32,000 bases of DNA from Gracilimonas tropica DSM 19535 (GCF_000375425.1 NZ_AQXG01000001.1:561176-593175); one strand, 5' to 3'. Shown: positions 5,238-20,940, counted from the first letter of the stretch. Notes: a model not told the origin generated them from the letters alone. Translations and numbers: made by a program.

Positions 5238-6746
5238 ATGCTTCGAAACCAACAAAATTTAAATCAGAAACAGCAGCAGAGTTTACAGCAAAAGCTTTCG
5301 CCTCAACAACTTCAGTACATAAAACTGCTGCAGTTGCCTACTATAGGACTGGAACAGCGCATCAAAGAAGAGATCGAAGCTAATCCGGTATTGGAAGAAG
5401 TAGATCCCGGAGAAGAGGATACTGTAAGTCTTTCTGAGGTTGATGAAAATCCTAAAGAAGAGAAAGAGGAAGCGCTCGAAAGTCTTGAGGAGCACGAAGT
5501 TGACTGGGATGAGTTTGATAAAAACACGGAATATGATGGCGAGCAGTTCGGTAATTCTTTTAATCCCGATATTGAAGAATGGAAGGAGCTTCCCAATCCT
5601 TATCAGGCTTCTTTTTTAGAACAACTGGAGGAACAGGTAAATTTACTTGACCTTACGGATGAGGAACAATTGATAGCCGATCAAATTTTGGGCTCACTTG
5701 ACGAAGATGGTTATTTCCGGCGTGAATTGGAGGCGGTGGTGGATAACATTGCTTTCAACCAGGGTATTTTGATTGATGAAGAGATGGTTGAGAAGGTTCG
5801 AAAAGAGATTCAACAGCTTGAACCAATTGGTATAGCTTCCCGAGATCTCAGAGACTGCTTATTGGTACAACTGAGAGCCTCAGAGAAGAAGCTGCCGGGC
5901 TTGAACCTTGCCATCCAGATTGTTAAAAATGCATGGAAAGCATTCGAGAAAAAACACTTTTCTAAGTTGCTGAAAAAATTCAAAGTCACCAGGGAAGAAT
6001 TGAACGATGCATTTGAGGCTATAAAGCAAATGGATCCACGGCCCGGTGCTGTGGCAAGTGGACTTGAGGAAACTCAAAATTACATTGAGCCGGATTTTGA
6101 GGTTTACTGGAAGGGCATTGAAGACGGTGAAAGTGATCGGGGGGAGTTCATCATCAACCTGAACCAACGGAATGCCCCTTCACTCCGAATATCTCCGGAA
6201 TACAAGCAAATGTGGGAAGAGATCAAATCCAAGAAAGAGAAAAAATCAGATTCAGATGCCCGAAACTTTATGAAGAGTAAGATCGATTCGGCAAATTGGT
6301 TTATAGAGTCGATTCGTCAGCGGCAAAATACGCTGATGAATATCATGAAGACCATTGTGGCATTGCAGGAAGATTTCTTTAAGTACGGAGAAGGACTCAA
6401 ACCTATGATCCTGAAAGATGTAGCTGAAAGAATTGGCATGGATATTTCGACTGTTTCGAGAGTTGTAAACGGTAAATATGTACAGACTTACTTTGGGGTT
6501 TATGAGTTAAAATACTTTTTCAATGAGGGGCTGGAAACTGAAAGCGGAGAAGAAGTATCTAACCGGGAAGTAAAGAATATTCTCGAAAACATCATCAATA
6601 AGGAAGACAAGCAAGATCCTTACAGCGATCAGCAACTAACCGATATGTTGAATGAAAAGGGGTATAAAGTAGCGCGAAGAACGGTTAGCAAATACAGGGA
6701 ACAGCTAAACCTTCCGGTTGCGCGGATGAGGAAACAAGTGATCTAA
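5238..6746 (+). CDS. rpoN: RNA polymerase sigma-54 factor
   Basis: Gln/Leu-rich region I (QQQSLQQKLSPQQLQYIKLLQLP), an acidic region II, a C-terminal HTH (ISTVSRVVNGKY) and the RpoN box ARRTVSKYR. Confidence 0.95.
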   Translation: MLRNQQNLNQKQQQSLQQKLSPQQLQYIKLLQLPTIGLEQRIKEEIEANPVLEEVDPGEEDTVSLSEVDENPKEEKEEALESLEEHEVDWDEFDKNTEYDGEQFGNSFNPDIEEWKELPNPYQASFLEQLEEQVNLLDLTDEEQLIADQILGSLDEDGYFRRELEAVVDNIAFNQGILIDEEMVEKVRKEIQQLEPIGIASRDLRDCLLVQLRASEKKLPGLNLAIQIVKNAWKAFEKKHFSKLLKKFKVTREELNDAFEAIKQMDPRPGAVASGLEETQNYIEPDFEVYWKGIEDGESDRGEFIINLNQRNAPSLRISPEYKQMWEEIKSKKEKKSDSDARNFMKSKIDSANWFIESIRQRQNTLMNIMKTIVALQEDFFKYGEGLKPMILKDVAERIGMDISTVSRVVNGKYVQTYFGVYELKYFFNEGLETESGEEVSNREVKNILENIINKEDKQDPYSDQQLTDMLNEKGYKVARRTVSKYREQLNLPVARMRKQVI

Positions 6747-8263
6747 GCTCCGGCCTTCTGTTCTATAAAATAAAGTACGGGCTGAAGATCATAACTGGTA
6801 TTGGATAGATCTGTATAGCTTTGAAGTGTTCCTTCCCAATCGCTGAACTGCTCTGAGACTAAAATAAAGGCATCTTTGCCGGCTTTTATAATGTTGGTTT
6901 TCAATCCCATCAGCATCAAAATTTTATTGGATAGTTCCTGAGCTTTTTCCAATGACTGAAAAAGTCCCAACTGGATCTGAAAATCGTAGGAGTAATTGGA
7001 GCCTGATAGTTTTTTATAGTTTACCAGGTTTTTATTTCCGGTAGCTCGTTCCAGAAAGTCAGATCGCTTCAAGGTTTCTGAGAGACTCTGCAGCGGTTGG
7101 GTTTGTACCCGGTAAAGTCCGTTTGAAACCGATGAAACCTCCATATCGATATCGTACTTATTTTCTAGAGAAGACGCGTAATTTCGAGCGTTTTCAACAG
7201 ATCGGAATGCTCCCAACTGAATTTGGTATTCGATTGAAGAGGGTATAAACGACTTATCGTAACACTGATGAATGATACCATTTGCAGATCCTGCCCAATT
7301 CGTATTCAGGTTTTCTGCCTTATCAAGGGTTTTTAGAAGATTATTATCTGGTGAAGTTCGAAGTGAAAAATGGGTTCCATTATACACGAGATTCAAATCC
7401 GTATTGCCAGCAGAGCGGGATGAAATAGATTTTGAGGCATTCCTGAAAGCATTTCCAAAGGAGGAAAAACTTCCTAATTGAACGGAATATCTGCATTGCT
7501 GATCAAGAGAAGACACCGCATTTTTTTCTTTTTCTGAACCGGATGCATCTGCCACCGGAAGGGGTTCGGTATAAAAAAGTCTGAGTGTTACCCGCCTGTT
7601 TTGAGCCCGGTTTTCAGGAATAGGCTTGCCGTTGCTATCAATATTAGAGGCAATAGGTCGTGAATCGGCATAGCCTGATGCTTTCAGACGGTCTTTGGAA
7701 ATACCCATTCCGGCCAGAAATTTAACCAGATTTGTGGCTCGTGCAGTCGATAATTCCCAGTTCGATTCATATGCTGCAGAATGGATGGGGACATCATCGG
7801 TATGGCCTTCAACCTCAATCTTAAAATCGTTGTAGGCGTTATTTTTTAAAGCTCGTGCGATTTTATTTAAAAGTGTAAGTGCCTCAGCCTGAATAGTTGC
7901 ACTTCCGGATAGATAGAGGTTATCACTCTTGAGGCGTATAAGAAGATCGTTGAGGTCTCTTTTGATTTCAATTTGATCATCAGCAACTTCTTCTATCAAA
8001 GCAAGTTCTATCTGTTTTCTGATCTTATTAATGGGAGTGGTAATGAACCTGGCTTCTTCCACATCAGATTTAAAAAGGCCTGAAACGGAAAAAACTTCAT
8101 TATCCGACATTTTTGAGACGGAAAGTAAAATGATCAGAAAACCGAGAAGAATAGTTATAATATCAAGGTAACTGATCTGCCAGCTTTCATCTTCGGATTC
8201 TTCCATTTCCTGTTTAGGAAACAAAGAGTTGTCATGCTCTATGTTCGGATCTTTACTACTCAC
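6743..8263 (-). CDS. MotB-like stator protein: N-terminal TM with conserved Asp, OmpA-like peptidoglycan-binding domain, and three C-terminal SPOR-like repeats (506 aa)
   Basis: SWQISYLDIITILLGFLIILL resembles the MotB TM/plug region, including the Asp. The OmpA block is EVEGHTDDVP..NWELSTARATNLVKFL..NRRVTLRL. GTG start at 8261-8263, 6 nt after the MotA stop. An in-frame ATG at 8206 is an alternative start. Confidence 0.85.
   Translation of the reverse strand: MSSKDPNIEHDNSLFPKQEMEESEDESWQISYLDIITILLGFLIILLSVSKMSDNEVFSVSGLFKSDVEEARFITTPINKIRKQIELALIEEVADDQIEIKRDLNDLLIRLKSDNLYLSGSATIQAEALTLLNKIARALKNNAYNDFKIEVEGHTDDVPIHSAAYESNWELSTARATNLVKFLAGMGISKDRLKASGYADSRPIASNIDSNGKPIPENRAQNRRVTLRLFYTEPLPVADASGSEKEKNAVSSLDQQCRYSVQLGSFSSFGNAFRNASKSISSRSAGNTDLNLVYNGTHFSLRTSPDNNLLKTLDKAENLNTNWAGSANGIIHQCYDKSFIPSSIEYQIQLGAFRSVENARNYASSLENKYDIDMEVSSVSNGLYRVQTQPLQSLSETLKRSDFLERATGNKNLVNYKKLSGSNYSYDFQIQLGLFQSLEKAQELSNKILMLMGLKTNIIKAGKDAFILVSEQFSDWEGTLQSYTDLSNTSYDLQPVLYFIEQKAGA
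6778..7492 (-). other. Three tandem SPOR-like domains in the C-terminal half of the MotB-like protein
   Basis: Each repeat opens with an aromatic-x-(V/I)QLG-x-F signature: YSVQLGSFSSFGNAFRNA, YQIQLGAFRSVENARNYA..GLYRVQT, FQIQLGLFQSLEKAQEL. Confidence 0.65.
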
Positions 8264-8269: not shown

Positions 8270-9070
8270 CTAAGCTATACCTGAACGATTTTGCTGGATG
8301 TGGGCCTGGAGTTTATCATATATCTGAAGTGCGGTCTTTCCTTCCTCAATCAAAAGTACTCCTTCCAGAATTAACTTTTTCCGGAAATATTTTGAAGATG
8401 CGATATTATTCATCTTTCGTGCCATGGGATTGAAAATAAAGTTACCGATAATAATTCCATATAAGGTTGTCATTAAAGCGGCGGCTAAACCTGTAAGCAG
8501 CGTTTCTATTTGATCAAAGTCTGAAAGGATTACGATCAGCCCAAATAAGGTACCCAACATTCCAAAAACCGGAGCGCTTTTACCCATGCTCGAAATGATG
8601 TCGTTGATCTTTTTTTGCCTGATATAGCTTTCCTGGATATTTGCTTGTCCCAATTCTCTGAGTTCTTGGGTTGAATAGTTTGTATCCAGAACAGAAAACA
8701 GGTAGCCTGCAAACTCTTCTTCGTATTCCAGGCTTAACTCCTCAATAGCTCCCATGCGGTCAGCTTTTATTCTTTTTTGCCATTGAATGATTTTTTCGAT
8801 GTCTTCGGCAAGCAGTTCATCGGTGATCTTGCTATAGGAAAATAATTTAAGACTGTCACGAATGGCTTTGAATACATCTCCGAACTCATAACTAATGAAA
8901 ACACTTGCAAGAATACCCCCGAAGACGATCGCCAGGCTCGGTAAATTCAAGAACCGGTAATCATCAGGAATAAAGTTAAAACTGCTTACCCCGATTACTA
9001 AAAGGGCACCCCATACCAATATCACCGATGCGATCAAAAAACACAGAATATTTAAAACAGAAGTACGCAT
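8270..9070 (-). CDS. MotA-type (flagellar-stator-like) proton channel subunit (266 aa)
   Basis: Four-TM MotA/PomA layout with a ~100-aa cytoplasmic loop between TM2 and TM3. SAPVFGMLGTLFGLI and LMTTLYGIIIGNFIFNPMARKM carry both conserved Pro positions. The C-tail LILEGVLLIEEGKTALQIYDKL resembles the MotA tail. Confidence 0.85.
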   Translation of the reverse strand: MRTSVLNILCFLIASVILVWGALLVIGVSSFNFIPDDYRFLNLPSLAIVFGGILASVFISYEFGDVFKAIRDSLKLFSYSKITDELLAEDIEKIIQWQKRIKADRMGAIEELSLEYEEEFAGYLFSVLDTNYSTQELRELGQANIQESYIRQKKINDIISSMGKSAPVFGMLGTLFGLIVILSDFDQIETLLTGLAAALMTTLYGIIIGNFIFNPMARKMNNIASSKYFRKKLILEGVLLIEEGKTALQIYDKLQAHIQQNRSGIA

Positions 9071-9076: not shown

Positions 9077-9622
9077 CTAATTTTGTGGATTGTAGTTTTC
9101 ACCAATCAGTCCTTCTTTTTTCAACTGTTGTATCAGGTAGGGGATATTTGGGATTGGGACTTCATTGTCCATCTCAAGTGCAAGTCTCCATTGCTCGGTA
9201 AATTTTTCAATGTCTCCAAGCCCGAGATAAATACTCCCCCTAAGAGCCAGAATATCTGCTGTTTCCTTGATTTCCGCAGCTTTATTAATATGATATAATG
9301 CACTTTGAAATTTCCCCATATAAAATAGCCTCTGTGCGGAGGAATAGAAGGTAGTGATTCCGTTGGCCCGTCCCTGATATCGTTCACTCAGTTCCCGGAT
9401 ATATTGTTGTTCCAGTTCTTGCTGCCTTTTTTGGGCTTCCAGCTCTTCTAGTGTCAACTGAGCAGTGCTATCTGCACTCACAGAATCGACAGCCTGAGTT
9501 GTTTGTGTGCTTTCATCGGCAGATCTGTTTTTTTCTGAAGCACTGCAATTTATGCACAGAACTGAAATGCCTATGTACAATCCGGTTAATATCTTTCTCA
9601 AAGAGGAAATAACTGATACCAC
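9077..9622 (-). CDS. Secreted or lipoprotein-like coiled-coil plus TPR-like protein (181 aa)
   Basis: Hydrophobic N-terminus ending ..GISVLCINCSAS. Coiled-coil segment LEELEAQKRQQELEQQYIRELSERY. The TPR-like C-terminus is paralogous to the C-terminus of the 999-aa protein. GTG start at 9620-9622; an internal TTG giving MRKILTGLYIG.. is an alternative. Confidence 0.6.
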   Translation of the reverse strand: MVSVISSLRKILTGLYIGISVLCINCSASEKNRSADESTQTTQAVDSVSADSTAQLTLEELEAQKRQQELEQQYIRELSERYQGRANGITTFYSSAQRLFYMGKFQSALYHINKAAEIKETADILALRGSIYLGLGDIEKFTEQWRLALEMDNEVPIPNIPYLIQQLKKEGLIGENYNPQN

Positions 9623-9658: not shown

Positions 9659-11530
9659 TTAATTCAATGCTTTACGAATAGCATCTATAACCATATGCTT
9701 GGCCTGTTCGCCTTTATCAGAATAATTCATCTGTTGAAGTTCCATACGTATCAGATGTTGTTCCCGTTTGGGACGAACAGATAAAAGTTTATCGGCAATT
9801 TCATTATCAAAGCTATAAACTGCTTCCAATAAAAGTTCTGTGGGGATGTGCGCAATGGCTCTCTTGATCAAAGAATGGCTCAGGTGTGGAATTTGATCAA
9901 TAGTGATGAATTGTTCCTCTATAATCCCTGCAACAGGCGATCCGGAAGCTTTCAATTGTTCTATATAGTTAGCCTGATCTTCTAAAGGCATTTGTTGAAT
10001 TATTCTCAGGATATTTTCAGTCCCTTGTTTTAGCTCTTTTTCTACCTCCAAAATATCCATGGCTTTAGAGAACAATCGGGAGGATATCTCTTTGTGTTCT
10101 TTGTACGAAAGAGTATGTAATTGGGCTATACCAAGCATGATATCGACTGTTCGGTCTTTGCCGATCTTATTCAACACTTGAGCCGCTTCGGATTCCGGAA
10201 GATAATCAATAAGCAAAGCTGAAGTGATCCTATCTTCTCCATGAAGAAGCTGCACAATATGATAATCTTTAAGGTGATCAAGAAACTGGAATAGCCCCAA
10301 TTGTTGATGCTTGGCCTTAGCTGATCCGCTTCCAAGTTTATTATTGAGTGCGTCGGCGAATTCGGCAATAGCCGGTTTTGTTGCCTCCGGCGACAAGGGT
10401 TCTGTCGAATTTAACTGGGCCTGAATAGTTTCAAAGTAGGCAGGTTTTAATTCTCTTTTGAGGGCTTTTATAAGGTGCCGGTCTACTGTTTGAATTATAT
10501 TCGAAGCTTTTTCAGCCCCTTTTTTGAGATCGTTTTCCATCCAAAATTCAAATAGCAAGGCGACTTCTTTTGGGTGGTTTAAAAATTGGTCGGTAACAAA
10601 TGTTGTCCCTGCATTGCTGTTGGTTACAGATGCCTTATGGTCATCAATAAAGTCTTCAGCCGAGGGTTGTTTGCTTCCTGGAATTCGTTCACGGGGAACA
10701 TGCATTTCGTGTTTAAGATCATCTCTCGATAATCCGGCTTTATGATCTTTTTTCGGCTGTTTTCTTGAAGGGGAATGAGTAAGCCTTCCAATCAACAAAG
10801 TCAGTCCAACCAAAAGCAGTAATACAAACCCCGGGATATAGTCTTTTACTGAACCCAATAAGGTTTCCCGGGCATCTGCCGGTTCTTCAATTCTGACAGG
10901 AGGGAGCGACTCAATCCCAAAGTCGGGCATGTTGATCAGGGTTATATTTACTTCATCGCCCCGTACTTCATTGATCTTAGCCGCTATCCCGGCTATTAAC
11001 CGCATAAATTCAACCCGATCTTGTTGCCGTGAGATTGAAGAATCAGCATATACGTTGACGCTCAGCTTTAGGATCTGCAACCTTTGTATGGTTTGCTCAT
11101 TTATGATCGTTTGGGTGGTTTCCTGATCATTACTTTGAACTTCTGCCGTCCTCCGGTTTTCTTCAGGTAGAAAAGGCAGACCCGGCATTATTACATTCTC
11201 CTGTTGAGTTCGTCCGCCTTTGATGATTTGATTTTGAGTGGTCTGGAAAGTCTCGTCTACAAATCGTGCATCGATGTTTATATCCACAAAAAACTTTCGG
11301 CTATCAAAGTAATTGGATAATACGTTCAGAACTTGAGCATCGAACTGTTGTTCAAGGGTAATTACTTTTAATTCCAATGACTCAGCGGTATTGGGTTGAG
11401 CATATGTTACCGTGAAGGGAAGGAGGAGAAGAAAAAACGGGAGTATCACTTTCCATAAATGCGAGAGCAAAGCATTGCAATACTGCTTTACTTTCGAACC
11501 ATTTTGAAATGTAAGTGATGCTATTCTCAT
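9659..11530 (-). CDS. Membrane-anchored protein with a FliF/YscJ-like periplasmic ring-building part, one TM, and a FliG middle/C-terminal-like cytoplasmic part (623 aa)
   Basis: Signal-like N-terminus VILPFFLLLLPFTVTYAQ. The periplasmic block LKLSVNVYADSSISRQQDRVEFMRLIAGIAAKINEVRGDEVNITLINMP resembles the FliF/YscJ motif. TM segment GFVLLLLVGLTLLIGRL. Cytoplasmic FLDHLKDYHIVQLLHGEDRITSALLIDYLPESEAAQVLNKIGKDRTVDIMLGIA is FliG_M/MgtE_N-like. FITIDQIPHLSHSLIKRAIAHIPTELLLEAVYSFDNEIADKLLSVRPKREQHLIRMEL..AKHMVIDAIRKAL is FliG_C-like. Its ATG overlaps the upstream stop as ATGA. The CDS is solid; the function is inferred. Confidence 0.6.
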   Translation of the reverse strand: MRIASLTFQNGSKVKQYCNALLSHLWKVILPFFLLLLPFTVTYAQPNTAESLELKVITLEQQFDAQVLNVLSNYFDSRKFFVDINIDARFVDETFQTTQNQIIKGGRTQQENVIMPGLPFLPEENRRTAEVQSNDQETTQTIINEQTIQRLQILKLSVNVYADSSISRQQDRVEFMRLIAGIAAKINEVRGDEVNITLINMPDFGIESLPPVRIEEPADARETLLGSVKDYIPGFVLLLLVGLTLLIGRLTHSPSRKQPKKDHKAGLSRDDLKHEMHVPRERIPGSKQPSAEDFIDDHKASVTNSNAGTTFVTDQFLNHPKEVALLFEFWMENDLKKGAEKASNIIQTVDRHLIKALKRELKPAYFETIQAQLNSTEPLSPEATKPAIAEFADALNNKLGSGSAKAKHQQLGLFQFLDHLKDYHIVQLLHGEDRITSALLIDYLPESEAAQVLNKIGKDRTVDIMLGIAQLHTLSYKEHKEISSRLFSKAMDILEVEKELKQGTENILRIIQQMPLEDQANYIEQLKASGSPVAGIIEEQFITIDQIPHLSHSLIKRAIAHIPTELLLEAVYSFDNEIADKLLSVRPKREQHLIRMELQQMNYSDKGEQAKHMVIDAIRKALN

Positions 11531-14526
11531 TTAGGAGTACTTTCCGCTTCAGGTATTACCATTCTGTCTAATTGTTCCATATCCGGAATGTAAATATCCG
11601 GATCGTATTTTTTTGCTAAATCCCAATAAGATCTAGCATTTTCCTTCTCATTATTCAAGTAAGCCAAACTTCCTTTTAAAGCATAACCTTGAGCAGTTTC
11701 AAAAATATTCAGTGATTCATTAACAAGACTCATTGCCCGGCTCAGGTTCTTATTATAGAAAGCATTTTGTGCTTTAATAATCAATCTTAAAACTTCATCC
11801 AAATTTTGATCAAGTTCAGATTCCAATGCCAACATTTTTTCGTCCGTTTTTATCTCATTGGGAATGGCCTCTGCAGTAATAGGGGAGGCCTCAACTTCCG
11901 GCACTTCATAATCCTGAGGGACTACTAAAAAAGAAAGTCCTTCCACAAAATCCCCTTCCGGTATAGCTTCAACTTCAAATTTCAGACGTTCAGGTATCGA
12001 CTTAGATTGCAATTGTTGAAGATTACCCCGGTCAATTTCGAGACTATATGAACCCGGAGGCACTTCCCATTCATAAAAACTTCCGTCAGAGAATGTTCTT
12101 AATTCTTTAGCAAAATCTCCGTTAGAATCTGATAATCTTAGCTTTAATCCTCCGATCCCGGTTTTACTGCTATCATCTCTCATTCTTTCCACAAATCCAT
12201 CAATAACCCCAGACATATAAAATGGAATTTCCACCTTCTTAAAGCGATTTGGATCGGTGATGAGTCCAAATTTTTCAAATTCCGGAACCAGCATAGGATT
12301 CTGAATGGCGGCTTTATTCATTTCCATATTGTAATAGAAATAGGGCTGCATCTGGGTATAATAAAGAATTCCATCTTTAGACTGACTGATCGCTCCGGAT
12401 CGCTGGATTCTTACGGCATTTCCTTTAATGGGGTCGTCTCCATCGTCAAAGGTGCCATTGTTATTGTTATCCACAAAAAGCTGTATAGCAGTACCAGAAC
12501 GGCCAACCTGATCGCGGCTGGTAAAGAGGAAGTTGTTGTAGTTGGTGTCATACCCGATAGAACCTCGAATATTTTGTGTGAGATTGTTATTCCCACTTAC
12601 ATTATTAAAGGTGGTGTTGGTTCTTACTTTATCGAAATCTATCACGAAGCTAAAGCGGATCGTATTAAAGTCTCGGGCAAAATTCCGGCCTACAGATAAC
12701 TGGAACTGCCCCTTGTTAAATAGGTTTCTGGATACAAGAAATTCAGCAGATTCGAATTGATCCACAGTAGGCTGGTACCTCATTTGTGCTCTCAGGAAAA
12801 CACCCCGCATAAAATTGGGAAGGTTCCTGTTTCTGGAGATGTTATAAGTAGCAGAACTTTCGAAGAAAGCTGTTTGAGTTGGATTGAATGGATCGAAGGT
12901 ACCGGTGTATCGATCGCTGTATCCAATCCGAACATTCATTCTTCCAATTCTGGTATTCGCATCTAAGCGAAAGGAGGTATTACTGGTGTTAGTTCGGAAC
13001 CGGGAAAAAGCTGATGCTCTTAAATTGAAGGGTAATCCACCAAAATTAAATGGATAAAAAACACTGCTTACTAAACGTTTATCATCATTGGAGGGATTGT
13101 ATACTCCAAAACCACTTGTGAAATCCGTGTAATCTATGTTTATGCTTGCGGAATTCGGGTAGATGACGTTCAATAATCCCCTGTAATAAGCTTGAGAAGC
13201 TGCTTCAAGGGTTAACAGGTAATTAGAAGAAATTCTCGAAGATACACTGCCCGTAAAAGTCGGGAGATCAGTATGATATCCTTGAAAAAACTCTATACCT
13301 GCCTTAGCCGTGAGCCAGTCGGTGACACCATAAGCACCGTTACCCTGGGCAGTGAACTGCTGTGAAGTTTCTCCAAAAATAGGATTGTCTAACTGACCGG
13401 CATTGATCGTGTAGTTAAACACTCCCTGAGGCTGGAAAGTAAAAGGAATCTGTATACGATCGGAACGCTCAATGACCTGACCGGTAGGACCGTAAATTCT
13501 CAGGTCAAGTTGGGAGGTTCCATAAGAAACAGGGGTAAGAAATCGGTAATTACCTAATTCATCAGCTTCCTGAAAATCGATCAAAGCGTTGTTCATGTAT
13601 AGTTCCACTTCAGATTCCGGGATTGTGCTTCCTTGAACTACAAACTCATCAAACATCCTTCGGGGCTCAATAGGCTCATTTGATAATCGAACCCCGGTGT
13701 ATGAATTTCTTGTAAAACCGTCAGTTGTGGTTTGTCCGATGGTGAGTTTTGTCAACCAGGGCTGATCCCGGAACATATATCGCCAGCGAAGATTGTCGGT
13801 GGCAAAGTTGGTAAAATTATCCGAGTAGCTTCCGAAAATTGAACCCTGAAGATCTCCTCCGTAAAGCTGAATACCCAGATTGGTATTAAAATTATACACT
13901 TGGTTATTGGGGGTTGCGTTTGCAGAAATATTGTAATCTACAAAACCGCCATCTAGGAAGGGGCGCTGGCGGTCGTACATCAAATCATATTTGGTATCCT
14001 GAAGGCGATTTCGGTCCGCTACTTGCCTACGTTGAGATCGTATAGCCTGTTCTATTGCAGGCAGTTCCTGATTGGTTTGTAAGTTCAGGGTTAGATTGTT
14101 GAAGTTTATGGTAAAATCAAGTCCAAATGCTTCATAGAATACCTCAGCCCGCAAATAACTGTCAATTTCTCTGAGGATATAATCATCAACGGTAAGCTCA
14201 ATGGTTTTGTCTCCGAAACGGATCTGATTGGCTTGGAGATTAATACGATAGGGAGTTTGATCGACTCCAAATTTCCCTTCAATGACGAGTCCGTTAACAT
14301 TCTTGTCGATATTGAAAAGGCTGAAAAGTTCTGAGACGGGGAGATAGAACTCGTCATTCTTATAGTAAGAAATAACAACGGTGTTGATAACACCACGGTG
14401 ACGGAAGTCTAAGTAAACCTCAAAAACATCTTCGTCATTATTTTGTGCAGAAGCATCATTTGGGAAGAAGCCAATACAAAAAATGAAAGAGAATATGATT
14501 GATATTGAAGACTTCCATCGGTACAC
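11527..14526 (-). CDS. Usher-like outer-membrane protein with extra CarboxypepD_reg-like and TPR-like C-terminal modules (999 aa)
   Basis: Signal peptide ..FFPNDASAQ. VELYMNNALIDFQEADELGNYRFLTPVSYGTSQLDLRIYGPTGQVIERS resembles the usher plug/middle-domain pattern. A long region of alternating Gly/aromatic/Asn residues is typical of a beta-barrel. GIGGLKLRLSDSNGDFAKELRTFSDGSFYEWEVPPGSYSL is carboxypeptidase-regulatory-like. The C-terminus is TPR-like. GTG start 1 nt after the chaperone stop. Confidence 0.55.
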   Translation of the reverse strand: MYRWKSSISIIFSFIFCIGFFPNDASAQNNDEDVFEVYLDFRHRGVINTVVISYYKNDEFYLPVSELFSLFNIDKNVNGLVIEGKFGVDQTPYRINLQANQIRFGDKTIELTVDDYILREIDSYLRAEVFYEAFGLDFTINFNNLTLNLQTNQELPAIEQAIRSQRRQVADRNRLQDTKYDLMYDRQRPFLDGGFVDYNISANATPNNQVYNFNTNLGIQLYGGDLQGSIFGSYSDNFTNFATDNLRWRYMFRDQPWLTKLTIGQTTTDGFTRNSYTGVRLSNEPIEPRRMFDEFVVQGSTIPESEVELYMNNALIDFQEADELGNYRFLTPVSYGTSQLDLRIYGPTGQVIERSDRIQIPFTFQPQGVFNYTINAGQLDNPIFGETSQQFTAQGNGAYGVTDWLTAKAGIEFFQGYHTDLPTFTGSVSSRISSNYLLTLEAASQAYYRGLLNVIYPNSASINIDYTDFTSGFGVYNPSNDDKRLVSSVFYPFNFGGLPFNLRASAFSRFRTNTSNTSFRLDANTRIGRMNVRIGYSDRYTGTFDPFNPTQTAFFESSATYNISRNRNLPNFMRGVFLRAQMRYQPTVDQFESAEFLVSRNLFNKGQFQLSVGRNFARDFNTIRFSFVIDFDKVRTNTTFNNVSGNNNLTQNIRGSIGYDTNYNNFLFTSRDQVGRSGTAIQLFVDNNNNGTFDDGDDPIKGNAVRIQRSGAISQSKDGILYYTQMQPYFYYNMEMNKAAIQNPMLVPEFEKFGLITDPNRFKKVEIPFYMSGVIDGFVERMRDDSSKTGIGGLKLRLSDSNGDFAKELRTFSDGSFYEWEVPPGSYSLEIDRGNLQQLQSKSIPERLKFEVEAIPEGDFVEGLSFLVVPQDYEVPEVEASPITAEAIPNEIKTDEKMLALESELDQNLDEVLRLIIKAQNAFYNKNLSRAMSLVNESLNIFETAQGYALKGSLAYLNNEKENARSYWDLAKKYDPDIYIPDMEQLDRMVIPEAESTPK

Positions 14527-14527: not shown

Positions 14528-15358
14528 TCAGGGGATAGTTACGGTCGTGGTTGCAGTTTCCGGTTCCATTTGAACTAAATCTGTCGGAGAAATATCGCTT
14601 CTGCGTGTTTCGAAAGTAACTTCTACTTGGTATTGACCTGGAGTTAACTCGCTTATATCTACAACTTCACTATGTACTCCATCGAAGTAGAAACTAGTGG
14701 AAGAAAATTTAGAAACTAAAACTTGGCCATCTTTCTTAATGTTAGTTTTTACAGATCCAAGAAAGGGAGAGTTGCCTCCTTTCTTGAACTTAGTTATTAA
14801 CTGTAATTCTCCATTTGAAACAGTACCTTTTTCAATATTCTCAATCATTATATCAGTCGTAGTATTACCGACTTTATAGAAAATACCAGATACTTGAGTA
14901 ATAACTACTCCTATATTAGCTCCAACACCTTGTTCATCACTAAGTTCTACAGGAGCACTTTCTGACTGAGAAATGGTTTTTAATCTAGTCCAGTATGTCC
15001 CATCATTTACTTTATTAGAACCTATTATTCTTAATCTAACAACTTGTCTTTGGCTAGGCTGCAATACGAAGTTTTTCGGGAAAGCCCTGATATCATCTGC
15101 TATCGAATACTTTTGAGCCAGAGCAGAGTCCTCATAAGTTGTTGTTTTATTCCCTTCCTCATCAGTTATAAAATACCCGAATGTAGTTTCAATGCTAATT
15201 TCTTGAGATTCACTAGAATTATTGATGACCATGAAGGTACCGAATTTAGAATCTTCTGTCAGAAACACATTAGTTGGAGCTATAGAAACTTGAGCAAAAG
15301 TAAGTACTGGGAGAATTGTTACAAGTAAAATTAACGAAAATGACTTTCTGAAATTCAT
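14528..15358 (-). CDS. PapD/CsuC-like periplasmic fimbrial chaperone (276 aa)
   Basis: Signal peptide ..LPVLTFAQ. VSIAPTNVFLTEDSKFGTFMVINNSSESQEISIE and IRAFPKNFVLQPSQRQVVRLRI match the two signature strands of pilus chaperones (..P..v.. ..v.N.s.. and f.v.P..f.l.p...q.vR+). The size fits two Ig-like domains. Confidence 0.6.
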   Translation of the reverse strand: MNFRKSFSLILLVTILPVLTFAQVSIAPTNVFLTEDSKFGTFMVINNSSESQEISIETTFGYFITDEEGNKTTTYEDSALAQKYSIADDIRAFPKNFVLQPSQRQVVRLRIIGSNKVNDGTYWTRLKTISQSESAPVELSDEQGVGANIGVVITQVSGIFYKVGNTTTDIMIENIEKGTVSNGELQLITKFKKGGNSPFLGSVKTNIKKDGQVLVSKFSSTSFYFDGVHSEVVDISELTPGQYQVEVTFETRRSDISPTDLVQMEPETATTTVTIP

Positions 15359-15492: not shown

Positions 15493-16041
15493 TTATTGAT
15501 AACTAACAGAAACATTGAGTGGGCCAGAGCCACCATCACCAGTATCTGAACTATATACTCCGGTTGTTGCACCATTTAATGAACCCAAGTTACCACCAAT
15601 GTAGATATAGAGAGCTCCAGTAGCAGATGTTTCACTAACAGTATTAGCAGTGTTTTTTGTCACATCACTTGAAGATGCAATTGCGTCAGTACTATTAGCT
15701 GAAATATCAGGTGTAAAAAGGATAGTATTACTATTTCCATCTCCTAGAGTTACTGTGGTCTGATCCCAATCAATAAGTAATTGGGTTTCGTTTGGACCAC
15801 TTACAGTGAGCTTACCAAATGCACTTCCACCCCCAACATCAGCGGTATTTGTACCTTGGGGATCCAATACTGGTGAGGAAGTTGCAGAAATAACTCCAAA
15901 ATCAACATCAGCATTTTTTGTGACAGTAATTGCAGCTTGAACGTCAGCAGCAATACTAACATCGGCTGATTGCGCATAAGCGCCTGCTGAGAATACAGCG
16001 GCTACGGCAAAAACGGTTAAAAGTGTTTTGAGCGTTTTCAT
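15493..16041 (-). CDS. DUF4402/SCPU-like fimbrial subunit, candidate major subunit (182 aa)
   Basis: I moved the start to the ATG at 16039-16041, giving the signal peptide MKTLKTLLTVFAVAAVFSAGAYAQ. The mature part is rich in Thr/Ser/Gly/Ala/Asn. It has the VDFG motif near the N-terminus and the C-terminal YIYIGGNLG....GVYS...LNVSVSYQ shared with the three upstream paralogs. It is monocistronic, flanked by hairpin terminators. Confidence 0.7.
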   Translation of the reverse strand: MKTLKTLLTVFAVAAVFSAGAYAQSADVSIAADVQAAITVTKNADVDFGVISATSSPVLDPQGTNTADVGGGSAFGKLTVSGPNETQLLIDWDQTTVTLGDGNSNTILFTPDISANSTDAIASSSDVTKNTANTVSETSATGALYIYIGGNLGSLNGATTGVYSSDTGDGGSGPLNVSVSYQ

Positions 16042-16082
16042 AATCGTGAGATTTAGTTTTATTGTTGTTTTAAATTCTGTGA

Positions 16083-16113
16083 TAAAATTATCGAAGTCTT
16101 TTACTTCATCCAA
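16083..16113 (-). promoter_or_regulatory. Candidate Bacteroidota-type promoter for the major subunit gene
   Basis: The minus strand reads TTG-N20-TAATTTTA, compared with the consensus TTG-N19-TAnnTTTG as I remember it. It lies ~45 nt upstream of the ATG. This is a pattern match only. Confidence 0.25.
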
Positions 16114-16163
16114 GTTAGATAGCTTTAATTAAAAGGGTCTAACTGTTTGCTGAAACCTGACTT

Positions 16164-16222
16164 AAAAAGTCTTAGATGACAATTTTGTCTGACCTAAAAT
16201 AAACATGTCTCATCAGACTTTT
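16164..16222 (-). terminator. Imperfect long hairpin / possible terminator after the three-gene minor-subunit block
   Basis: Inverted repeat AAAAGTCTtaGATGACA ... TGTCTCATCAGACTTTT: about 13 bp with bulges and a T-run on the minus-strand 3' side. Confidence 0.35.
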
Positions 16223-16258
16223 ATTTAGAGTTCTTTAATCTTTCTTGTGTTAGAGCCA

Positions 16259-16786
16259 TCAATCATAATCCACCGAAAGAACAATGTCGCCGGTATAAAC
16301 TCCATTGGGAACGTTGCCAACGTTTATGGCACCATATACATAGATGTACATGATCTTCCAGATATCATTGCGGCTTTCCAGGCGGGTGTCTTCATGAATG
16401 GAAACCATTCCGTTGTTATCCGACAGGATATCGGCTCCATTAATACTGTTTTGGCCTGTATTGTTGTATGCCATATTCAGTTCCAGAGGAATTTCAGCTT
16501 CGTTAGCTGGATTATCACTTTCAAGAGATTCGGGATACTGTAAAGTGAGATATACATTTTGGGTATGGAAGGCTTTAATGCTAAAAACCCCCATGTTGAT
16601 GTCCCCAAGCTGGATCTCGGTTCTCCCCGAATTAGTCACCTGAGTTCCAAAGTCAAGATCCTGCTCCACGGTAGCACTTAATTCCGGTTCAACCTTTAGC
16701 TGTAAATTGATGAACTGTGCAGATGTAGGAGAAACATAACAAGCTGAAAAAAGGAAAAGTAATATGATATTTCGAATCTTAATCAT
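16259..16786 (-). CDS. DUF4402/SCPU-like fimbrial subunit paralog (175 aa)
   Basis: Signal peptide ..YVSPTSAQ. LDFG motif. C-terminus MYIYVYGAINVGNVPNGVYTGDIVLSVDYD. The start overlaps the upstream stop by 8 nt (ATGATTAA). Confidence 0.7.
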   Translation of the reverse strand: MIKIRNIILLFLFSACYVSPTSAQFINLQLKVEPELSATVEQDLDFGTQVTNSGRTEIQLGDINMGVFSIKAFHTQNVYLTLQYPESLESDNPANEAEIPLELNMAYNNTGQNSINGADILSDNNGMVSIHEDTRLESRNDIWKIMYIYVYGAINVGNVPNGVYTGDIVLSVDYD

Positions 16787-17432
16787 AAGAAACGGTTATA
16801 GTAATCTCGCCGGAGTAACTTCCTGCATCTACGTTGCCCACATTTAAGGAGCCATAAATATAGATGTAAGCGGTCTCGTTAAATAGAGCCGGATTGTATC
16901 CTTCATAAACCGGGGTAGGAGGAGGTCCGGGTGGTTGATTTCCTCTCGCTAAAATAGGGAATTGTGCACTGGCAACATTAGAAGCTATCTGCATCAAAAC
17001 CGCCTGATTGGTGTTGTTTGATCCCCGGTTTGCATAAGCAGCTTGCAGCGTAAATGGAATGCAATTGGTGTTGGTTCCATTACAGGCCACGTCTGAGTCG
17101 AGGAAGAGATAATTGTCAGCTGTGATATCGACAATGACATCCAGGTATTTGACGCCCTCAATCATTAATATTTTGGCGTCTACAAGATCAATGGATTTAA
17201 CTCCTTCATTTTGAATAACGGTTCCAAATTCCAAATCTTCAGCTGGGTTGAGTTCAGAAAGAGTGACAGCATATTTGCTGCTGAAATCACCAAAATCTAT
17301 TTCCTGGGCTTTCAGCGAAACAGAAGATAGTTGAGTCGTAAAAACCATGATAAGAAGAAACAGAAAACCCGTTCTGCAAATGAATAAAGCAGATCCGAGT
17401 AGTGCATTATTTCGTTTCTTTTTATTTATCAT
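16779..17432 (-). CDS. DUF4402/SCPU-like fimbrial subunit paralog with a Pro-rich insert (217 aa)
   Basis: Signal/TM segment ..FLLIMVFTTQLSSVSLKAQ. LEFG motif. Insert GNQPPGPPPTPVYEGY. C-terminus AYIYIYGSLNVGNVDAGSYSGEITITVSYD. ATGA overlap with the upstream gene. Confidence 0.7.
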   Translation of the reverse strand: MINKKKRNNALLGSALFICRTGFLFLLIMVFTTQLSSVSLKAQEIDFGDFSSKYAVTLSELNPAEDLEFGTVIQNEGVKSIDLVDAKILMIEGVKYLDVIVDITADNYLFLDSDVACNGTNTNCIPFTLQAAYANRGSNNTNQAVLMQIASNVASAQFPILARGNQPPGPPPTPVYEGYNPALFNETAYIYIYGSLNVGNVDAGSYSGEITITVSYD

Positions 17433-17938
17433 ATGTAATCAATCTCAATGGTGAAGTCGCCTTCATAATTTCCTGGCGCTGCATTTTGAAGATTTACACG
17501 CCCGCCAACCCAGATGAAAAATTGTCCTTCTTCATTAAAACGGATATTGCGATTGTCCAATTCCAAAAGTTCGGAAGTAGATTGGTCTTCAATGGAATTT
17601 CCGGAAATTTCGTAGGTAAAAGTCAGTGTTCCGTCTCCGTCAATTTGAGTGAGCTCACGTTCAGGAACATAATTTAATCTGAATTCGGCGTTCGGAGTAC
17701 CAACTGCAATCATATATCCGGCGTTTAAACTTGTTACAGGGTTTACATAGATCTCCTGCTGACCCGGTTGAGCATTGCCGAATTGCATGGTATTAATGGT
17801 AATGAGTTCGATAGATTGGATCACTTCTGCACTTACATTTACACGTGCAGAAATACTTTGATCCTCTCCGTTTTGAGCATGCAAATTCTGGAAACAGAAA
17901 ATTAATAATAAAAATAGGGCTGAGAGAACTCTGTGCAT
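17429..17938 (-). CDS. DUF4402/SCPU-like fimbrial subunit paralog (169 aa)
   Basis: I moved the start to the ATG at 17936-17938, giving MHRVLSALFLLLIFCFQNLHAQ. MQFG motif. C-terminus FFIWVGGRVNLQNAAPGNYEGDFTIEIDYI. Confidence 0.65.
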   Translation of the reverse strand: MHRVLSALFLLLIFCFQNLHAQNGEDQSISARVNVSAEVIQSIELITINTMQFGNAQPGQQEIYVNPVTSLNAGYMIAVGTPNAEFRLNYVPERELTQIDGDGTLTFTYEISGNSIEDQSTSELLELDNRNIRFNEEGQFFIWVGGRVNLQNAAPGNYEGDFTIEIDYI

Positions 17939-18086
17939 TATACCTAAAGCTATAATCTTAATATTAGCGGTATAAAGTTCGTAGTAATTGGCCAACAATA
18001 ATAGTTAATATCCTTTAATTAGCTTGATGTAACACAAGTTAAAAGGCTTTAAGATTTCTCTTGAACATGTAGGATTTCAGGCTAAT

Positions 18087-18529: not shown

Positions 18530-19897
18530 TTATTGAATTTTTTCTTTCCAATATACAATGGTGAAAATACTTTCACGAGGAAATGACGGAGGAATGGTCT
18601 CTTTAAGGCGATCATCATAAATATAATTTTTTGAAAAACCTGAGGCCGTACCATAATTATTAAAAGTACCAACCGGACCACGATTTCTCTGAATGATTCC
18701 GCCCAAAATATTCAAGGTTCCCCTGGGACTTCCACTATTGTAATTCTCAACGGTGAATGCGTTATCAAGAGCCATAATTGAAGCATGTATTGTAAGGTTA
18801 CTGCTTCCGTTATCTTGATGAGCATCTTTATCAACAATTACATTGCCTTCGCTCACAAGACCCAAAAGGTCGGGAGATGGGGTATCGGGATCATCGAGTG
18901 GATTTGTATCGTAATAGATATCTCCCATGATCTCAATTTCATCAGTCGCATGCACTGTATATTTTCCCTTGATTTCGCCTTTCACTCTTGCAGTACCCTC
19001 AACACTTATGAGTCCATTGTAATTCGATAATGAATAGTTGGTGTGATTAGTTGTGCCTTCGCAAGTGTACCAATTCCGATAACCGCAGGCATAAGTGTAA
19101 ATGTCTGCTGCCTGAACCTGGGGATTACCATTGCCATCCACAAAAAACTCAAGCACTTTGTCGCTATCAAAGGTTAGTCCGCCCATATTTGCGGTGGTTA
19201 TCAGTTCATTGATTTGAGCTTGGTCGGGGAGATCTCGCGTTGTAGCCATGTTGAAATTTGTATTGCCATTAAAAATGGGAGTCTCATCTCCATGGCGCTC
19301 ATCGGGATCATCGCTGTTTGGGTCTCCATCTTGTCCTACCCAGTCATTGGGGCTGCTGACGTCTCCATTGAAGGTAGGAGAACCGGCGATTCTTAAGGTT
19401 CCATTTGTATGAACGGGTCCGGTGATGACATCATCATCATAGAAATAAATTTCGATATCATCGTTGGGATGGGGAAGTGTTTCTGCATCGGTGAAGTAAG
19501 AGAATTTTGAAAATGAATCCCGCTGTAAAAGCACTTCAATCTCAGCGGTGTAGCCTTCGTATTCTGCACGGCTGATCATCAAAACTTTGTATTGATTCCA
19601 TTCTGTAACGCTGTGATCCACGGTATCAAGTCCGGATGAATTCATGCCATACATCAATAATTGTCCTTTTCCGGCATAGTCCTGATCGGTGCTTATGGTG
19701 CCGGTCCATTCCATATCACGAAACAGATTTTGTACAGCATTATCCACCAGGCTTGTTGCAACATTTTTCGCCTGCTGTTCTTTGAAATAGTTGGCGGATT
19801 CTTCGGGCAATACTTCCAACCGGTTGTTATTTGATATCTGAATAATTCCTGAAATAACAACAAGACCGCTAACTAAAAGTAACAATGCGCGTCCCAT
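18530..19897 (-). CDS. PilX/GspK-class large pseudopilin-like protein, set 1 (455 aa)
   Basis: N-terminal hydrophobic helix MGRALLLLVSGLVVISGIIQ. Motifs ITGPVHTNGTLRIAGSPTFNGDV, LLGLVSEGNVIV and GGIIQRNRGPVGTF..GFSKNYIYDDRL..IPPSFP match what I remember from PilX-like/DUF4900-type proteins in type IV pilus minor-pilin operons. A strong AGGAGG Shine-Dalgarno sits 5 nt upstream of the ATG. Confidence 0.6.
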   Translation of the reverse strand: MGRALLLLVSGLVVISGIIQISNNNRLEVLPEESANYFKEQQAKNVATSLVDNAVQNLFRDMEWTGTISTDQDYAGKGQLLMYGMNSSGLDTVDHSVTEWNQYKVLMISRAEYEGYTAEIEVLLQRDSFSKFSYFTDAETLPHPNDDIEIYFYDDDVITGPVHTNGTLRIAGSPTFNGDVSSPNDWVGQDGDPNSDDPDERHGDETPIFNGNTNFNMATTRDLPDQAQINELITTANMGGLTFDSDKVLEFFVDGNGNPQVQAADIYTYACGYRNWYTCEGTTNHTNYSLSNYNGLISVEGTARVKGEIKGKYTVHATDEIEIMGDIYYDTNPLDDPDTPSPDLLGLVSEGNVIVDKDAHQDNGSSNLTIHASIMALDNAFTVENYNSGSPRGTLNILGGIIQRNRGPVGTFNNYGTASGFSKNYIYDDRLKETIPPSFPRESIFTIVYWKEKIQ

Positions 19898-19920
19898 AGG
19901 AGCCTCCTTTTATACGGGTA

Positions 19921-20511
19921 TTAATACCATGGTTTGTTAATATTGTTAGGAGAAAAAGTGCGTTTCCAAACAGTGCGGTGATAGGTATTATTAACATCAC
20001 CGCCGGATACAAATCTGGAATTCATGGGTTCTCCTGATTCCACCATAACTTCTACTTCAATGCTTACATCTCTTTGCTGGAACAAAGTTGAAATGTCGTT
20101 TACTACATTATTATCCTTATCGTAGTACATGAGTTTGAAATGGGTAACAGGGTATTTTGTGATGGTTCCATTTCCATCGTCACGATACAAGTAAAAATCG
20201 TTGGGATTGGTTGTGGTGGTGACTTTATCATCTTCAACGGTGTACCAGGTTATATTTCCTTCCGAGGTTTTAAATTCGATTTCATCCGGCTCGGCAGTAA
20301 TGATGGGATCATCCATAAATGAGGTAGTATTGTTATAACCAACCCTTTTCAGGTCAAAGGAAATGACCTCAACGATATCGTTCAGGCGCTGCTGATTGAT
20401 GGCAGAAATGGTTGTTTCTTGCGTACTGGAGGATAGCTGCATATTGTAGGCAAGGATGCTGAGCAGCATCAAACCGCCTACCACAAAACTTGTAATGATG
20501 CCCATATTCAT
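19921..20511 (-). CDS. PilW/GspJ-class pseudopilin-like protein, set 1 (196 aa)
   Basis: N-terminal helix MNMGIITSFVVGGLMLLSILAY, then LNDIVEVISFDLKRVGYN (PilW-like ..dlr.aGy). Shares TNPND, F.L.YYD and W+KRFSP.N blocks with the set-2 paralog. Confidence 0.6.
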   Translation of the reverse strand: MNMGIITSFVVGGLMLLSILAYNMQLSSSTQETTISAINQQRLNDIVEVISFDLKRVGYNNTTSFMDDPIITAEPDEIEFKTSEGNITWYTVEDDKVTTTTNPNDFYLYRDDGNGTITKYPVTHFKLMYYDKDNNVVNDISTLFQQRDVSIEVEVMVESGEPMNSRFVSGGDVNNTYHRTVWKRTFSPNNINKPWY

Positions 20512-20520
20512 AAATTCACC

Positions 20521-20940
20521 CTATTCTTTAAAGTAAGTTTTAATGTATTCCAGTTGAACCTGAACGGGAGGGTCGGTTGCATCAGAAGTAACCTGAACGG
20601 TAACACGGTACTGTTTTTGGGTGGAAGTGTTTTCAATCAAAACTGAATTTCGGGTCACTTCATACTCTTCTGAAAATTCATCGCTGGAACCATATTCTAC
20701 GGTTGTTGTAATGGGATCGGAGTCAAACAGATATTGGTTGGACGTAGGGTTCAAATGGATTTCCGGAGCCCAGCGTATGTTGTCCAGCTCATCCTGTGCC
20801 AAAGCTATCGCCCGATATTCAATTGTAGATTGGATAGACGTGCTCGTAGTATTCATGAAGCTTCGGGAGGTGTTGATCGTAAGCATGGAGAAAACGACCA
20901 TCGCGACCATCAGAAATATGACATCAGAAAAGTCATTCAT
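20521..20940 (-). CDS. PilV/GspI-class small pseudopilin-like protein, set 1 (139 aa)
   Basis: N-terminus MNDFSDVIFLMVAMVVFSML, followed by RAIALAQDELDNIRW. The size and helix-plus-beta layout resemble small minor pilins. Confidence 0.55.
   Translation of the reverse strand: MNDFSDVIFLMVAMVVFSMLTINTSRSFMNTTSTSIQSTIEYRAIALAQDELDNIRWAPEIHLNPTSNQYLFDSDPITTTVEYGSSDEFSEEYEVTRNSVLIENTSTQKQYRVTVQVTSDATDPPVQVQLEYIKTYFKE

Follow-up and report, generated by a model that had tools for sequence, protein, structure and literature searches.

What use does a bacterium described as non-motile (PMC4642740) have for the rotor and stator proteins of a flagellum? The question is raised by a gene cluster of Gracilimonas tropica DSM 19535 (GCF_000375425.1), found in a stretch of 32,000 nucleotides (NZ_AQXG01000001.1:561176-593175) that is called the window here. 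G. tropica, Balneola, Fodinibius and others were reported to lack flagellar assembly genes (PMC9909488). In the window, a gene named FliFG here, which joins FliF-like and FliG-like parts in one protein, was found in an operon with the order of four DUF4402 genes, chaperone-like gene, usher with TPR domain, FliFG, TPR lipoprotein, MotA, and MotB (with OmpA and SPOR domains), i.e., a chaperone-usher fibre system that runs straight into a rotor-stator module. The order and overlap of the genes, the TPR domains in common and the co-loss tie the rotor-stator core to the outer-membrane usher, and the locus points to an undescribed ion-driven motor with a non-flagellar purpose. The favoured reading, held to be moderately probable, is a stripped-down ion-driven rotor-stator pair, FliFG with MotA/MotB, coupled by TPR domains to an outer-membrane machine.

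The FliFG open reading frame (ORF) occupies exactly 9659–11530 on the minus strand, starts with ATG and encodes 623 residues. Unless another strand is given, all window features below lie on the minus strand. The product was 100% identical to the NCBI protein of G. tropica annotated as FliG C-terminal domain-containing protein. It was analysed by ORF, Pfam and PDB profile matches, by an AlphaFold2 (AF2) model searched with Foldseek, and by the ratio of nonsynonymous to synonymous substitutions (dN/dS). A signal peptide was predicted at residues 1–44 (11399–11530), where a variable hydrophobic N-terminus is followed by A-x-A/Q, the slash marking the putative cleavage site. Because the hydrophobic segment terminates in TVTYA/Q and Gln45 is invariant among 40 homologues, a cleaved signal peptide fits. 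A periplasmic part of about 180 residues (approximately 45–225) comes next. The single transmembrane (TM) helix, GFVLLLLVGLTLLIGRL, was assigned to the hydrophobic stretch at residues 234–250 (10781–10831), and the AF2 model places a helix at 224–251. The cytoplasmic part (approximately residues 252–623) is made of a disordered linker and then a helical part of about 320 residues. The mean predicted local distance difference test (pLDDT) score of the model was 75, with the cytoplasmic domains mostly at about 90.

In a profile of 40 family members, the PDB matches were colinear with the C-terminal part of FliF followed by FliG. The topology given in the preliminary description, i.e., signal-like N-terminus, periplasmic part of about 180 residues, one TM helix and cytoplasmic part, was borne out by the ORF, the alignment and the AF2 model. 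Its proposal that the FliF-like and FliG-like parts share one polypeptide likewise found agreement among Pfam, the PDB profile and AF2 with Foldseek. By homology and predicted structure, FliFG is a natural fusion of the FliF third ring-building motif (RBM3) and beta-collar, one TM helix, and the FliG N, M, and C domains.

The similarity of the FliG half to FliG is well beyond chance. Pfam FliG_M (35 bits, gathering threshold 25; E 1.7e-8) was matched at residues 412–493 (10052–10297), and FliG_C (31.4 bits, gathering threshold 23.3; E 2.4e-7) at residues 525–620 (9671–9958), both above the threshold. The family profile matched the FliG middle and C-terminal domains of Thermotoga maritima (1lkv) at E 2e-25. 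A FliG_N-like helical domain was predicted at residues 305–396 (10343–10618) from a profile match to FliG_N of 5tdy_B (E 0.002, profile positions 312–373) and from the Foldseek alignment to full-length FliG. Pfam FliG_N itself stayed below the gathering threshold and was placed on a wrong region. By Foldseek, the model was aligned with full-length FliG (3hjl, 8wiw, 8umx) over 306–316 columns at E 1e-6 to 1e-5. The order of FliG_M and then FliG_C, as stated in the preliminary description, therefore holds on all three lines, i.e., Pfam, 1lkv and Foldseek. The NCBIfam equivalog model for FliG, TIGR00207, was not reached (48.1 bits, cut-off 226.7). A generic helical repeat of MgtE_N type without the torque helix had been named beforehand as the alternative to FliG. 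This candidate was rejected, because MgtE structures were matched at E ~1 vs 1e-6 for FliG, Pfam MgtE_N was below the gathering threshold, and the torque helix is present.

The torque helix, RPKREQHLIRMELQQ, lies within the FliG_C domain at residues 586–600 (9731–9775). All 40 sequences of the family share R589, E590, Q591, and L593, and conservation at E597 is 90% or higher. R589 is equivalent to R281 and E597 to D289 of Escherichia coli FliG. The rotor-stator charge pairs reported in E. coli are R90/D289 and E98/R281 (PMC12505986). The site of R281 was Arg or Lys in 105 of the 109 full-length representatives of the superfamily. A check of the charged ridge residues had been suggested in the preliminary description, and its outcome was divided: the R281 and D289 equivalents are kept, but those of K264, D288, and R297 are not.

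The EHPQR motif of the middle domain is reduced to E432. The EHPQ of T. maritima FliG aligns with EDRI in FliFG, leaving a single invariant Glu, and the equivalent of R160 is Gly. No FliM, FliN or export-gate genes were found within the 32-kb window, as noted before, and the search did not extend to the whole genome. The degenerate FliM-binding motif agrees with this lack of FliM and FliN.

The FliF half was recognized mainly by its fold. A periplasmic domain like RBM3 with beta-collar was predicted at residues 45–205 (10916–11398) from the AF2 topology and Foldseek. The topology consists of a helix (52–74), two long beta elements (80–103 and 138–163), a second helix (170–184), and a beta strand (193–199). 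In the model, the domain is one ring-building motif (RBM) with an inserted beta-hairpin collar. The best Foldseek matches were FliF structures, i.e., 6sd1_A (E 9.5e-5, TM-score 0.57), 7cg7_A (TM-score 0.58) and the Vibrio S-ring 8z4g_1 (TM-score 0.56), whereas the best non-flagellar match had E 0.39 and the SctJ-type rings E ~0.45. The family profile matched residues 405–560 of Salmonella FliF at E 0.03. Pfam YscJ_FliF_C gave 15.3 bits in FliFG, below its gathering threshold of 23.8. PF01514 was not matched; RBM1 and RBM2 are absent from FliFG, which has one RBM in about 180 residues. A reading of the domain as the RBM1/2 type of YscJ/SctJ was ruled out by Pfam and by the Foldseek preference for the FliF RBM3/collar. 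Of the FliF/YscJ-like ring motif in the preliminary description, the FliF side was therefore retained as an RBM3/beta-collar fold, but the YscJ-like side was not.

Between the two long beta elements lies a conserved loop, MPGLPFLPEEN, at residues 115–125 (11156–11188). P116, G117, L118, P119, and P122 are invariant, and 95 of the 107 full-length representatives of the superfamily have the PGxP motif. The pLDDT falls below 50 over residues 104–137, the segment between these elements, and this disordered segment is read as lying at the collar tip of the model. The loop may be the ligand of a TPR domain.

Downstream of FliFG, the genes of the TPR lipoprotein, motA and motB follow with gaps of 36, 6, and 6 nucleotides. 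FliFG had been placed directly upstream of MotA/MotB. The stator genes are indeed adjacent, but the gene of the 181-residue TPR lipoprotein (9077–9622) intervenes. This protein was assigned from sub-threshold Pfam TPR matches and from an N-terminus like the leader of the Pal lipoprotein. In about 40 loci its gene separates FliFG from MotA, and it is the conserved partner of every FliFG-MotAB module.

MotA (266 residues, 8270–9070) was assigned as a stator subunit of the flagellar MotA/PomA type by Pfam MotA_ExbB and by its best PDB and NCBIfam matches. In PDB, MotA/PomA were matched at E 4e-22 vs 0.03 for TolQ. The best NCBIfam models were MotP, PomA, and MotA, with stator scores below the equivalog cut-offs. 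K102 occupies the site of PomA R88, and E110/E111 that of E96/E97. The equivalents of PomA P151, T158, T186, and P199 are invariant (40/40), residues 174 and 202 being the Thr equivalents of T158 and T186. These two residues of PomA are Na+-binding threonines (PMC6677748). Because their equivalents are invariant and MotP and PomA are among the best NCBIfam models, the stator of these marine and halophilic bacteria is plausibly driven by Na+. MotB (506 residues, 6743–8263) has a TM helix with Asp34, a plug, an OmpA-like domain and a C-terminal tail of SPOR repeats, according to Pfam MotB_plug, OmpA, and SPOR. Asp34 is invariant in 41 of 41 sequences. The long SPOR tail was found in all Balneolaceae loci and is absent from distant loci. 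By its matches, the stator is of the flagellar type, and its channel residues are intact.

Zorya or another defence system was also considered and rejected. MotA gave only weak ZorA matches (E ~1e-4, TM core), and FliFG and the usher had no PADLOC match.

On the other side of motB, rpoN (5238–6746, plus strand) converges on it, and the 3' ends overlap by 4 nucleotides. This arrangement implies no regulatory link, because the rpoN-DUF3109 flank is common to the closest relatives only.

Are these genes in use, or are they the remains of a lost flagellum? The incomplete flagellar pathway of Aliifodinibius has been read as a relic, and the family ancestor may have been flagellated (PMC9909488). 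By this account, fliF, fliG, and motAB would be functionless leftovers. The incomplete pathway itself speaks for it, as do the flagella with motility reported for Balneola vulgaris and Salinibacter ruber and the scores far under the NCBIfam equivalog cut-offs. For B. vulgaris, flagella with motility are mentioned in a passage of PMC5167729 that cites Urios 2006, and in its proteome a single flagellar assembly protein was reported, with proteins of chemotaxis missing (PMC9027524). The reports on B. vulgaris are in conflict, since flagella and motility stand against a Balneola without flagellar assembly genes.

Selection and synteny gave the answer. A scan with one genome per species found 42 loci, of which 38 belong to Balneolaceae and the others to Fibrobacteria and Chitinophagales, with the locus of protein P0078 (L001/L002) in addition. 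One of the loci (L036) is from a metagenome-assembled genome of Aliifodinibius. The order of three to four DUF4402 genes, chaperone, usher, FliFG, TPR, MotA, and MotB was kept in essentially every Balneolaceae locus that no contig end interrupts. Housekeeping genes on the flanks matched only among the closest relatives, and elsewhere the flanks differ. The dN/dS was calculated by the Nei-Gojobori method on six locus pairs that are 90–93% identical in FliFG. The values were 0.03–0.08 for FliFG, 0.005–0.03 for MotA, 0.04–0.16 for MotB, 0.05–0.14 for the TPR lipoprotein, 0.03–0.07 for the usher and 0.05–0.09 for the chaperone-like protein. Every measured component is thus under strong purifying selection (0.005–0.16). 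A decaying relic does not agree with the low values of FliFG and MotA, nor with module ORFs that are intact and of constant length in about 40 genomes. The functional residues are invariant, the synteny with non-flagellar genes is fixed, and 137 or more clusters across phyla share the fusion architecture. On the evidence of dN/dS, synteny and the breadth of the family, the relic is effectively refuted, and we find it hardly credible.

The breadth of the family was estimated by searching a profile of the periplasmic domain against 1.84 billion representatives, with clusters taken at 50% identity. There were 282 clusters at E ≤ 1e-3 and 137 at E ≤ 1e-10. Among the best 150 matches, 107 have at least 560 residues, a length fitting the fused architecture. 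Some relatives carry an N-terminal LysM domain, and some are periplasmic lipoproteins of RBM repeats with a terminal TPR domain. The Pfam threshold of YscJ_FliF_C was passed by a few remote relatives only (P0334, 33 bits; P0337, 26.7 bits).

What lies upstream of FliFG was missing from the preliminary description, and this chaperone-usher setting gives the rotor a different presumed purpose. The stop of the upstream gene overlaps the FliFG start by 4 nucleotides (ATGA). Its product of 999 residues (11527–14526) was predicted as an outer-membrane usher with the FimD/PapC fold (AF2 pLDDT 81). In Foldseek, the model matched 9fx8_D at E 2.6e-28, and with 3rfz_B (778 residues) it was aligned over 907 columns, nearly the whole FimD chain. 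The protein is almost without Pfam signal, and a sequence profile of the usher family gave TPR matches only in PDB. It is because of the fold search alone that it is read as a usher. At the C-terminus, an extra TPR domain (approximately residues 890–990) was found, which is homologous to the TPR lipoprotein with 32% identity.

One nucleotide upstream of the usher, a chaperone-like protein of 276 residues is encoded (14528–15358), and it was kept in 37 loci. No Pfam match was found, and its profile gave nothing in PDB at E ≤ 10. The N-terminal pattern, VSIAPTNVFL...VINNS, is taken by us to resemble PapD-like chaperones. From its position, size and N-terminal motif, it is a candidate periplasmic chaperone. 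The four DUF4402 genes (206, 175, 217, and 189 residues; 15493–17998) may encode the fibre subunits. Pfam DUF4402 was matched at E ≤ 1 in 26 of 31 aligned members, and the DUF4402 profile gave nothing in PDB at E ≤ 10. At the C-termini, a Gly at position -14 is invariant and a penultimate Tyr is nearly invariant. The pair of this Gly and Tyr is the classical signature of chaperone-usher subunits. A link of DUF4402 to Csu-type pilins is at best tentative, since Pfam SCPU gave only one marginal match among the 31 members.

Two further groups of genes lie upstream of the fibre genes. A protein of 2525 residues (23778–31355) contains DUF2341, Laminin_G_3, Invasin_D3 and a C-terminal sorting domain of type 9 secretion. 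A homologue stands upstream of the fibre genes in 23 of the 38 Balneolaceae loci, and in L051-L053 it immediately precedes the DUF4402 genes. Within the same system, the protein may serve as cargo or as a tip adhesin. At 18530–23636, two paralogous triplets of small proteins (183/199/377 and 139/196/455 residues, the one of 455 residues with DUF4900) are encoded. They have an N-terminal hydrophobic helix, like minor type IV pilins or pseudopilins, with no obvious prepilin cleavage site. The triplets were kept upstream of the cluster in 22 loci.

Do the motor and the usher belong to one complex, or are they only neighbours? Relatives of G. tropica provide a natural deletion. Many Gracilimonas species have a usher homologue of 1121–1549 residues, in which SPOR domains replace the TPR tail. 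Such usher-SPOR fusions (1171–1549 residues) were located at 10001–13516 in L045, at 9001–12516 in L049 (Gracilimonas mengyeensis) and at 9001–13650 in L050, i.e., in species without FliFG, TPR lipoprotein and MotAB. In L045 and L050, the upstream flank is as in the window, with the giant adhesin, small proteins, four subunit genes and chaperone, and so is the downstream flank with rpoN, DUF3109, biotin carrier and EPSP synthase genes. The usher-SPOR gene abuts rpoN there, and the module between them is gone. Over residues 24–885, the usher of L045 (P0099) and that of the window have 75% identity, and the C-terminal 250 residues of P0099 are colinear with window MotB residues 256–503 (28% identity, E 2e-22). 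All three loci lack the usher TPR domain, FliFG, the TPR lipoprotein, MotA, and the N-terminus of MotB. The simplest reading would be a deletion that starts with the TPR tail of the usher and ends midway through motB. Because the usher was fused to the MotB anchor and the usher TPR domain was lost with the motor, this is evidence of the Rosetta-stone type for one complex. The lipoprotein P0334, in which RBM repeats are fused to the same TPR type inside a FliG-MotAB cluster, points the same way.

In more distant loci, the module was found in two settings. In the metagenomic locus L047, the gene layout is the same; FliFG bears a LysM domain, with a FliG part of 18% identity, two chaperone-like genes are present, and the usher with its TPR tail is 34% identical over the full length. 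The other setting, named class X, has the layout FliFG, X, TPR lipoprotein, MotA, and MotB in L001, L041, L042, L044, and L046. Protein X has 360–380 residues (L001 11848–12933; L041 11707–12840; L042 12002–13108; L046 2550–3650; L048 6876–7994). It has a signal peptide, an N-terminal alpha/beta part, a beta-rich C-terminal half and Phe as the last residue, and no Pfam match. These features suggest a barrel-like outer-membrane partner in place of the usher. The MotB of class X is short (224–230 residues) and without SPOR. The invariant core is therefore FliFG, TPR lipoprotein, MotA, and MotB, always with an outer-membrane protein.

Two observations on these distant loci are added. The TPR lipoproteins of Fibrobacteria (L041 12809–14119; L044 12068–13420) have Pro/Ala-rich tails of about 200 residues, like the periplasm-spanning regions of TonB and TolA. 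Genes like TonB-dependent receptors (Plug with or without CarboxypepD_reg, beta-barrel) stand directly after the module in L001 (15099–18017) and L042 (15121–17862).

If the module were autonomous, with a task in the inner membrane or periplasm and usher genes that are merely adjacent, modules without usher would be expected, and class-X loci are of this kind. Usher clusters without the module also exist. Such a separation is difficult to combine with the 4-nucleotide translational overlap of usher and FliFG, with an association held in two very divergent lineages, and with a usher TPR tail that is homologous to the TPR lipoprotein of the module and was lost along with it. We therefore regard mere adjacency as very doubtful.

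It is reasonable to consider how the coupled motor would work. FliFG and the MotA/MotB pair, possibly driven by Na+, would act without export gate, rod, hook, filament and FliM/FliN switch, and FliFG may amount to the minimal rotor that the preliminary description proposed. The OmpA-like and SPOR domains of MotB would hold stator units of the MotA5B2 type on peptidoglycan. Ions would pass MotB Asp34, and the stator would push the torque helix of FliG_C, where R589 and E597 in FliFG would face E110/E111 and K102 in MotA. Since a single TM helix links FliG covalently to the RBM3/beta-collar, an S-ring-like collar in the periplasm would turn along. The MPGLPFLP loop at the collar tip would be gripped by TPR domains, i.e., by those of the TPR lipoprotein and of the usher tail. 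The work of the inner-membrane ion gradient would thereby be delivered to the outer-membrane machine. In Balneolaceae, this would be the chaperone-usher apparatus assembling DUF4402 fibres, and in Fibrobacteria and Chitinophagales the small beta-barrel protein X. The output might be rotation or extrusion of the fibre, gating of the usher, or tension.

Must anything rotate? FliFG, the TPR lipoprotein and MotAB could be a static tether in the envelope, i.e., a non-rotating scaffold that holds the usher in position and ties it to both peptidoglycan and inner membrane, with ion flow at most controlling assembly. The usher of motor-less relatives gained a SPOR tail, which suggests that anchoring on peptidoglycan is worth keeping, and the unusually long SPOR tails of Balneolaceae MotB and the LysM-bearing FliFG variants agree with it. 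A scaffold would have no need for an invariant Asp in MotB, channel Pro and Thr in MotA and torque-helix Arg under dN/dS of 0.03–0.08, and the distant class-X MotB is short and lacks SPOR. The static tether is thus considered rather unlikely.

A different use of ion flow would be a TonB-like pulsed transducer, in which an intermittent pull or torsion through the TPR proteins opens the plug of the usher or of a barrel like TonB-dependent receptors. Ushers have a plug, and the AF2 usher model matches the plug-containing FimD/PapC. The receptor-like genes after MotB in L001 and L042 and the Pro/Ala-rich spacers of the Fibrobacteria lipoproteins, as in TonB/TolA, would also be explained. The receptor adjacency was seen in two loci only, perhaps by coincidence, a ring-forming RBM3/collar is superfluous for a TonB-like pull, and no TonB-box-like element was identified. 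Such a transducer is quite unlikely in our judgement.

The coupled rotor-stator reading also has to carry several points that weigh against it. Ring formation and rotation are assumed from homology, and the collar would stand beside the inner membrane whereas the usher is in the outer membrane, so that bridging by TPR domains is a conjecture. Of the five charges that are classical in FliG, FliFG retains only two, and the equivalents of the other three are not conserved. In MotA, the basic site is Lys or Arg in 29 of 40 sequences and the acidic site Glu or Asp in 30 of 40 (approximately 72–75%). The chaperone and pilin identities come from sequence motifs only. The usher is not a universal partner, since class-X loci do without it. 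Motor-less Gracilimonas keep the chaperone-usher cluster intact, which means that basic fibre assembly does not depend on the motor. The assembly of known chaperone-usher fibres is classically independent of membrane energy.

A bolder form of the reading is a second kind of rotary surface organelle, in which a flagellar-type core without type III export drives a chaperone-usher fibre. This is improbable on the present evidence. If true, it could explain why B. vulgaris was once reported to have flagella and motility. As in the favoured reading, the torque module of FliF-RBM3, FliG, and MotAB would be selectable independently of the export and axial parts, which bears on the evolution of the flagellar motor. 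Should the favoured reading hold, the locus would also bear on the question of half a motor (PMC12199754), the membrane-energy independence of chaperone-usher fibre biogenesis would be challenged, and the modular origin of the flagellar motor would become testable in culturable marine bacteria. The analysis also corrects the annotation of these genes, which are currently taken for what is left of a vanished flagellum (PMC9909488) or labelled flagellar motor switch protein FliG.

Compared with known systems, the closest is the core of the flagellar rotor in Salmonella, Vibrio and T. maritima. RBM3/collar and FliG N, M, and C follow in the same N-to-C order, and the torque-helix Arg and Glu and a partner of flagellar MotA/MotB type are also found in the FliFG system. 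Unlike that core, FliFG is a single polypeptide without RBM1 and RBM2, and a probably cleaved signal peptide replaces the first TM helix. FliM/FliN, EHPQR, export gate, rod, hook and filament are missing from its system, and its host is described as non-motile and reportedly lacks flagellar assembly genes. To our knowledge, torque generation between FliG and MotA occurs only inside flagella.

Covalent linkage of FliF and FliG is shared with engineered fusions, i.e., the deletion-fusion of Salmonella and the fusion of Vibrio (PDB 8z4d/8z4g), the latter of which assembles into MS/S-rings (PMC11481574) and whose S-ring was matched by Foldseek at TM-scores of 0.56–0.57. Those are laboratory constructs with full-length FliF in a complete flagellum, whereas FliFG is natural, lacks RBM1/2 and stands outside a flagellum. 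A natural RBM-TM-FliG fusion is present in Chlamydiaceae, bacteria not thought to be flagellated (Bergeron 2016, PMC4768692), in which only FliF, FliL, and FlhA were reported as flagellar genes (PMC4768692). The Chlamydia fusion has about 330 residues, RBM2 and one RBM-like segment, no SpoIIIAG-like (RBM3) domain, and FliG_M only. It is thought to work with the injectisome, whereas FliFG keeps the RBM3/collar, the full FliG, the torque helix and an adjacent MotAB.

ExbBD-TonB, TolQR-TolA, GldLM of type 9 secretion and AglRQS resemble the present system in that an inner-membrane motor of the MotAB family apparently powers an outer-membrane machine, with Pro-rich or TPR adaptors in the periplasm. 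They differ in having no rotor of FliG/FliF type, and their A subunits belong to a generic clade vs the flagellar-type MotA here. We know of no use of MotAB-family motors outside flagella, i.e., Ton, Tol, Gld, Agl and Zor, that has a FliG/FliF rotor.

With chaperone-usher pili (FimD/PapC and the archaic Csu type), the locus shares the usher fold, the order of subunits, chaperone and usher, and the C-terminal signature of the subunits. It differs in the TPR tail of the usher, the DUF4402 subunits, a chaperone that Pfam does not recognize, and an operon that extends into rotor and stator genes. In the literature searched on DUF4402, Balneola FliG, non-flagellar FliG, and usher with FliG and MotA, no non-flagellar FliF-FliG/MotAB system or usher link was found. 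As a system, a FliG/FliF-type rotor outside the flagellum and inside a usher operon is without a described counterpart, and by homology it is a new variant of the flagellar rotor-stator.

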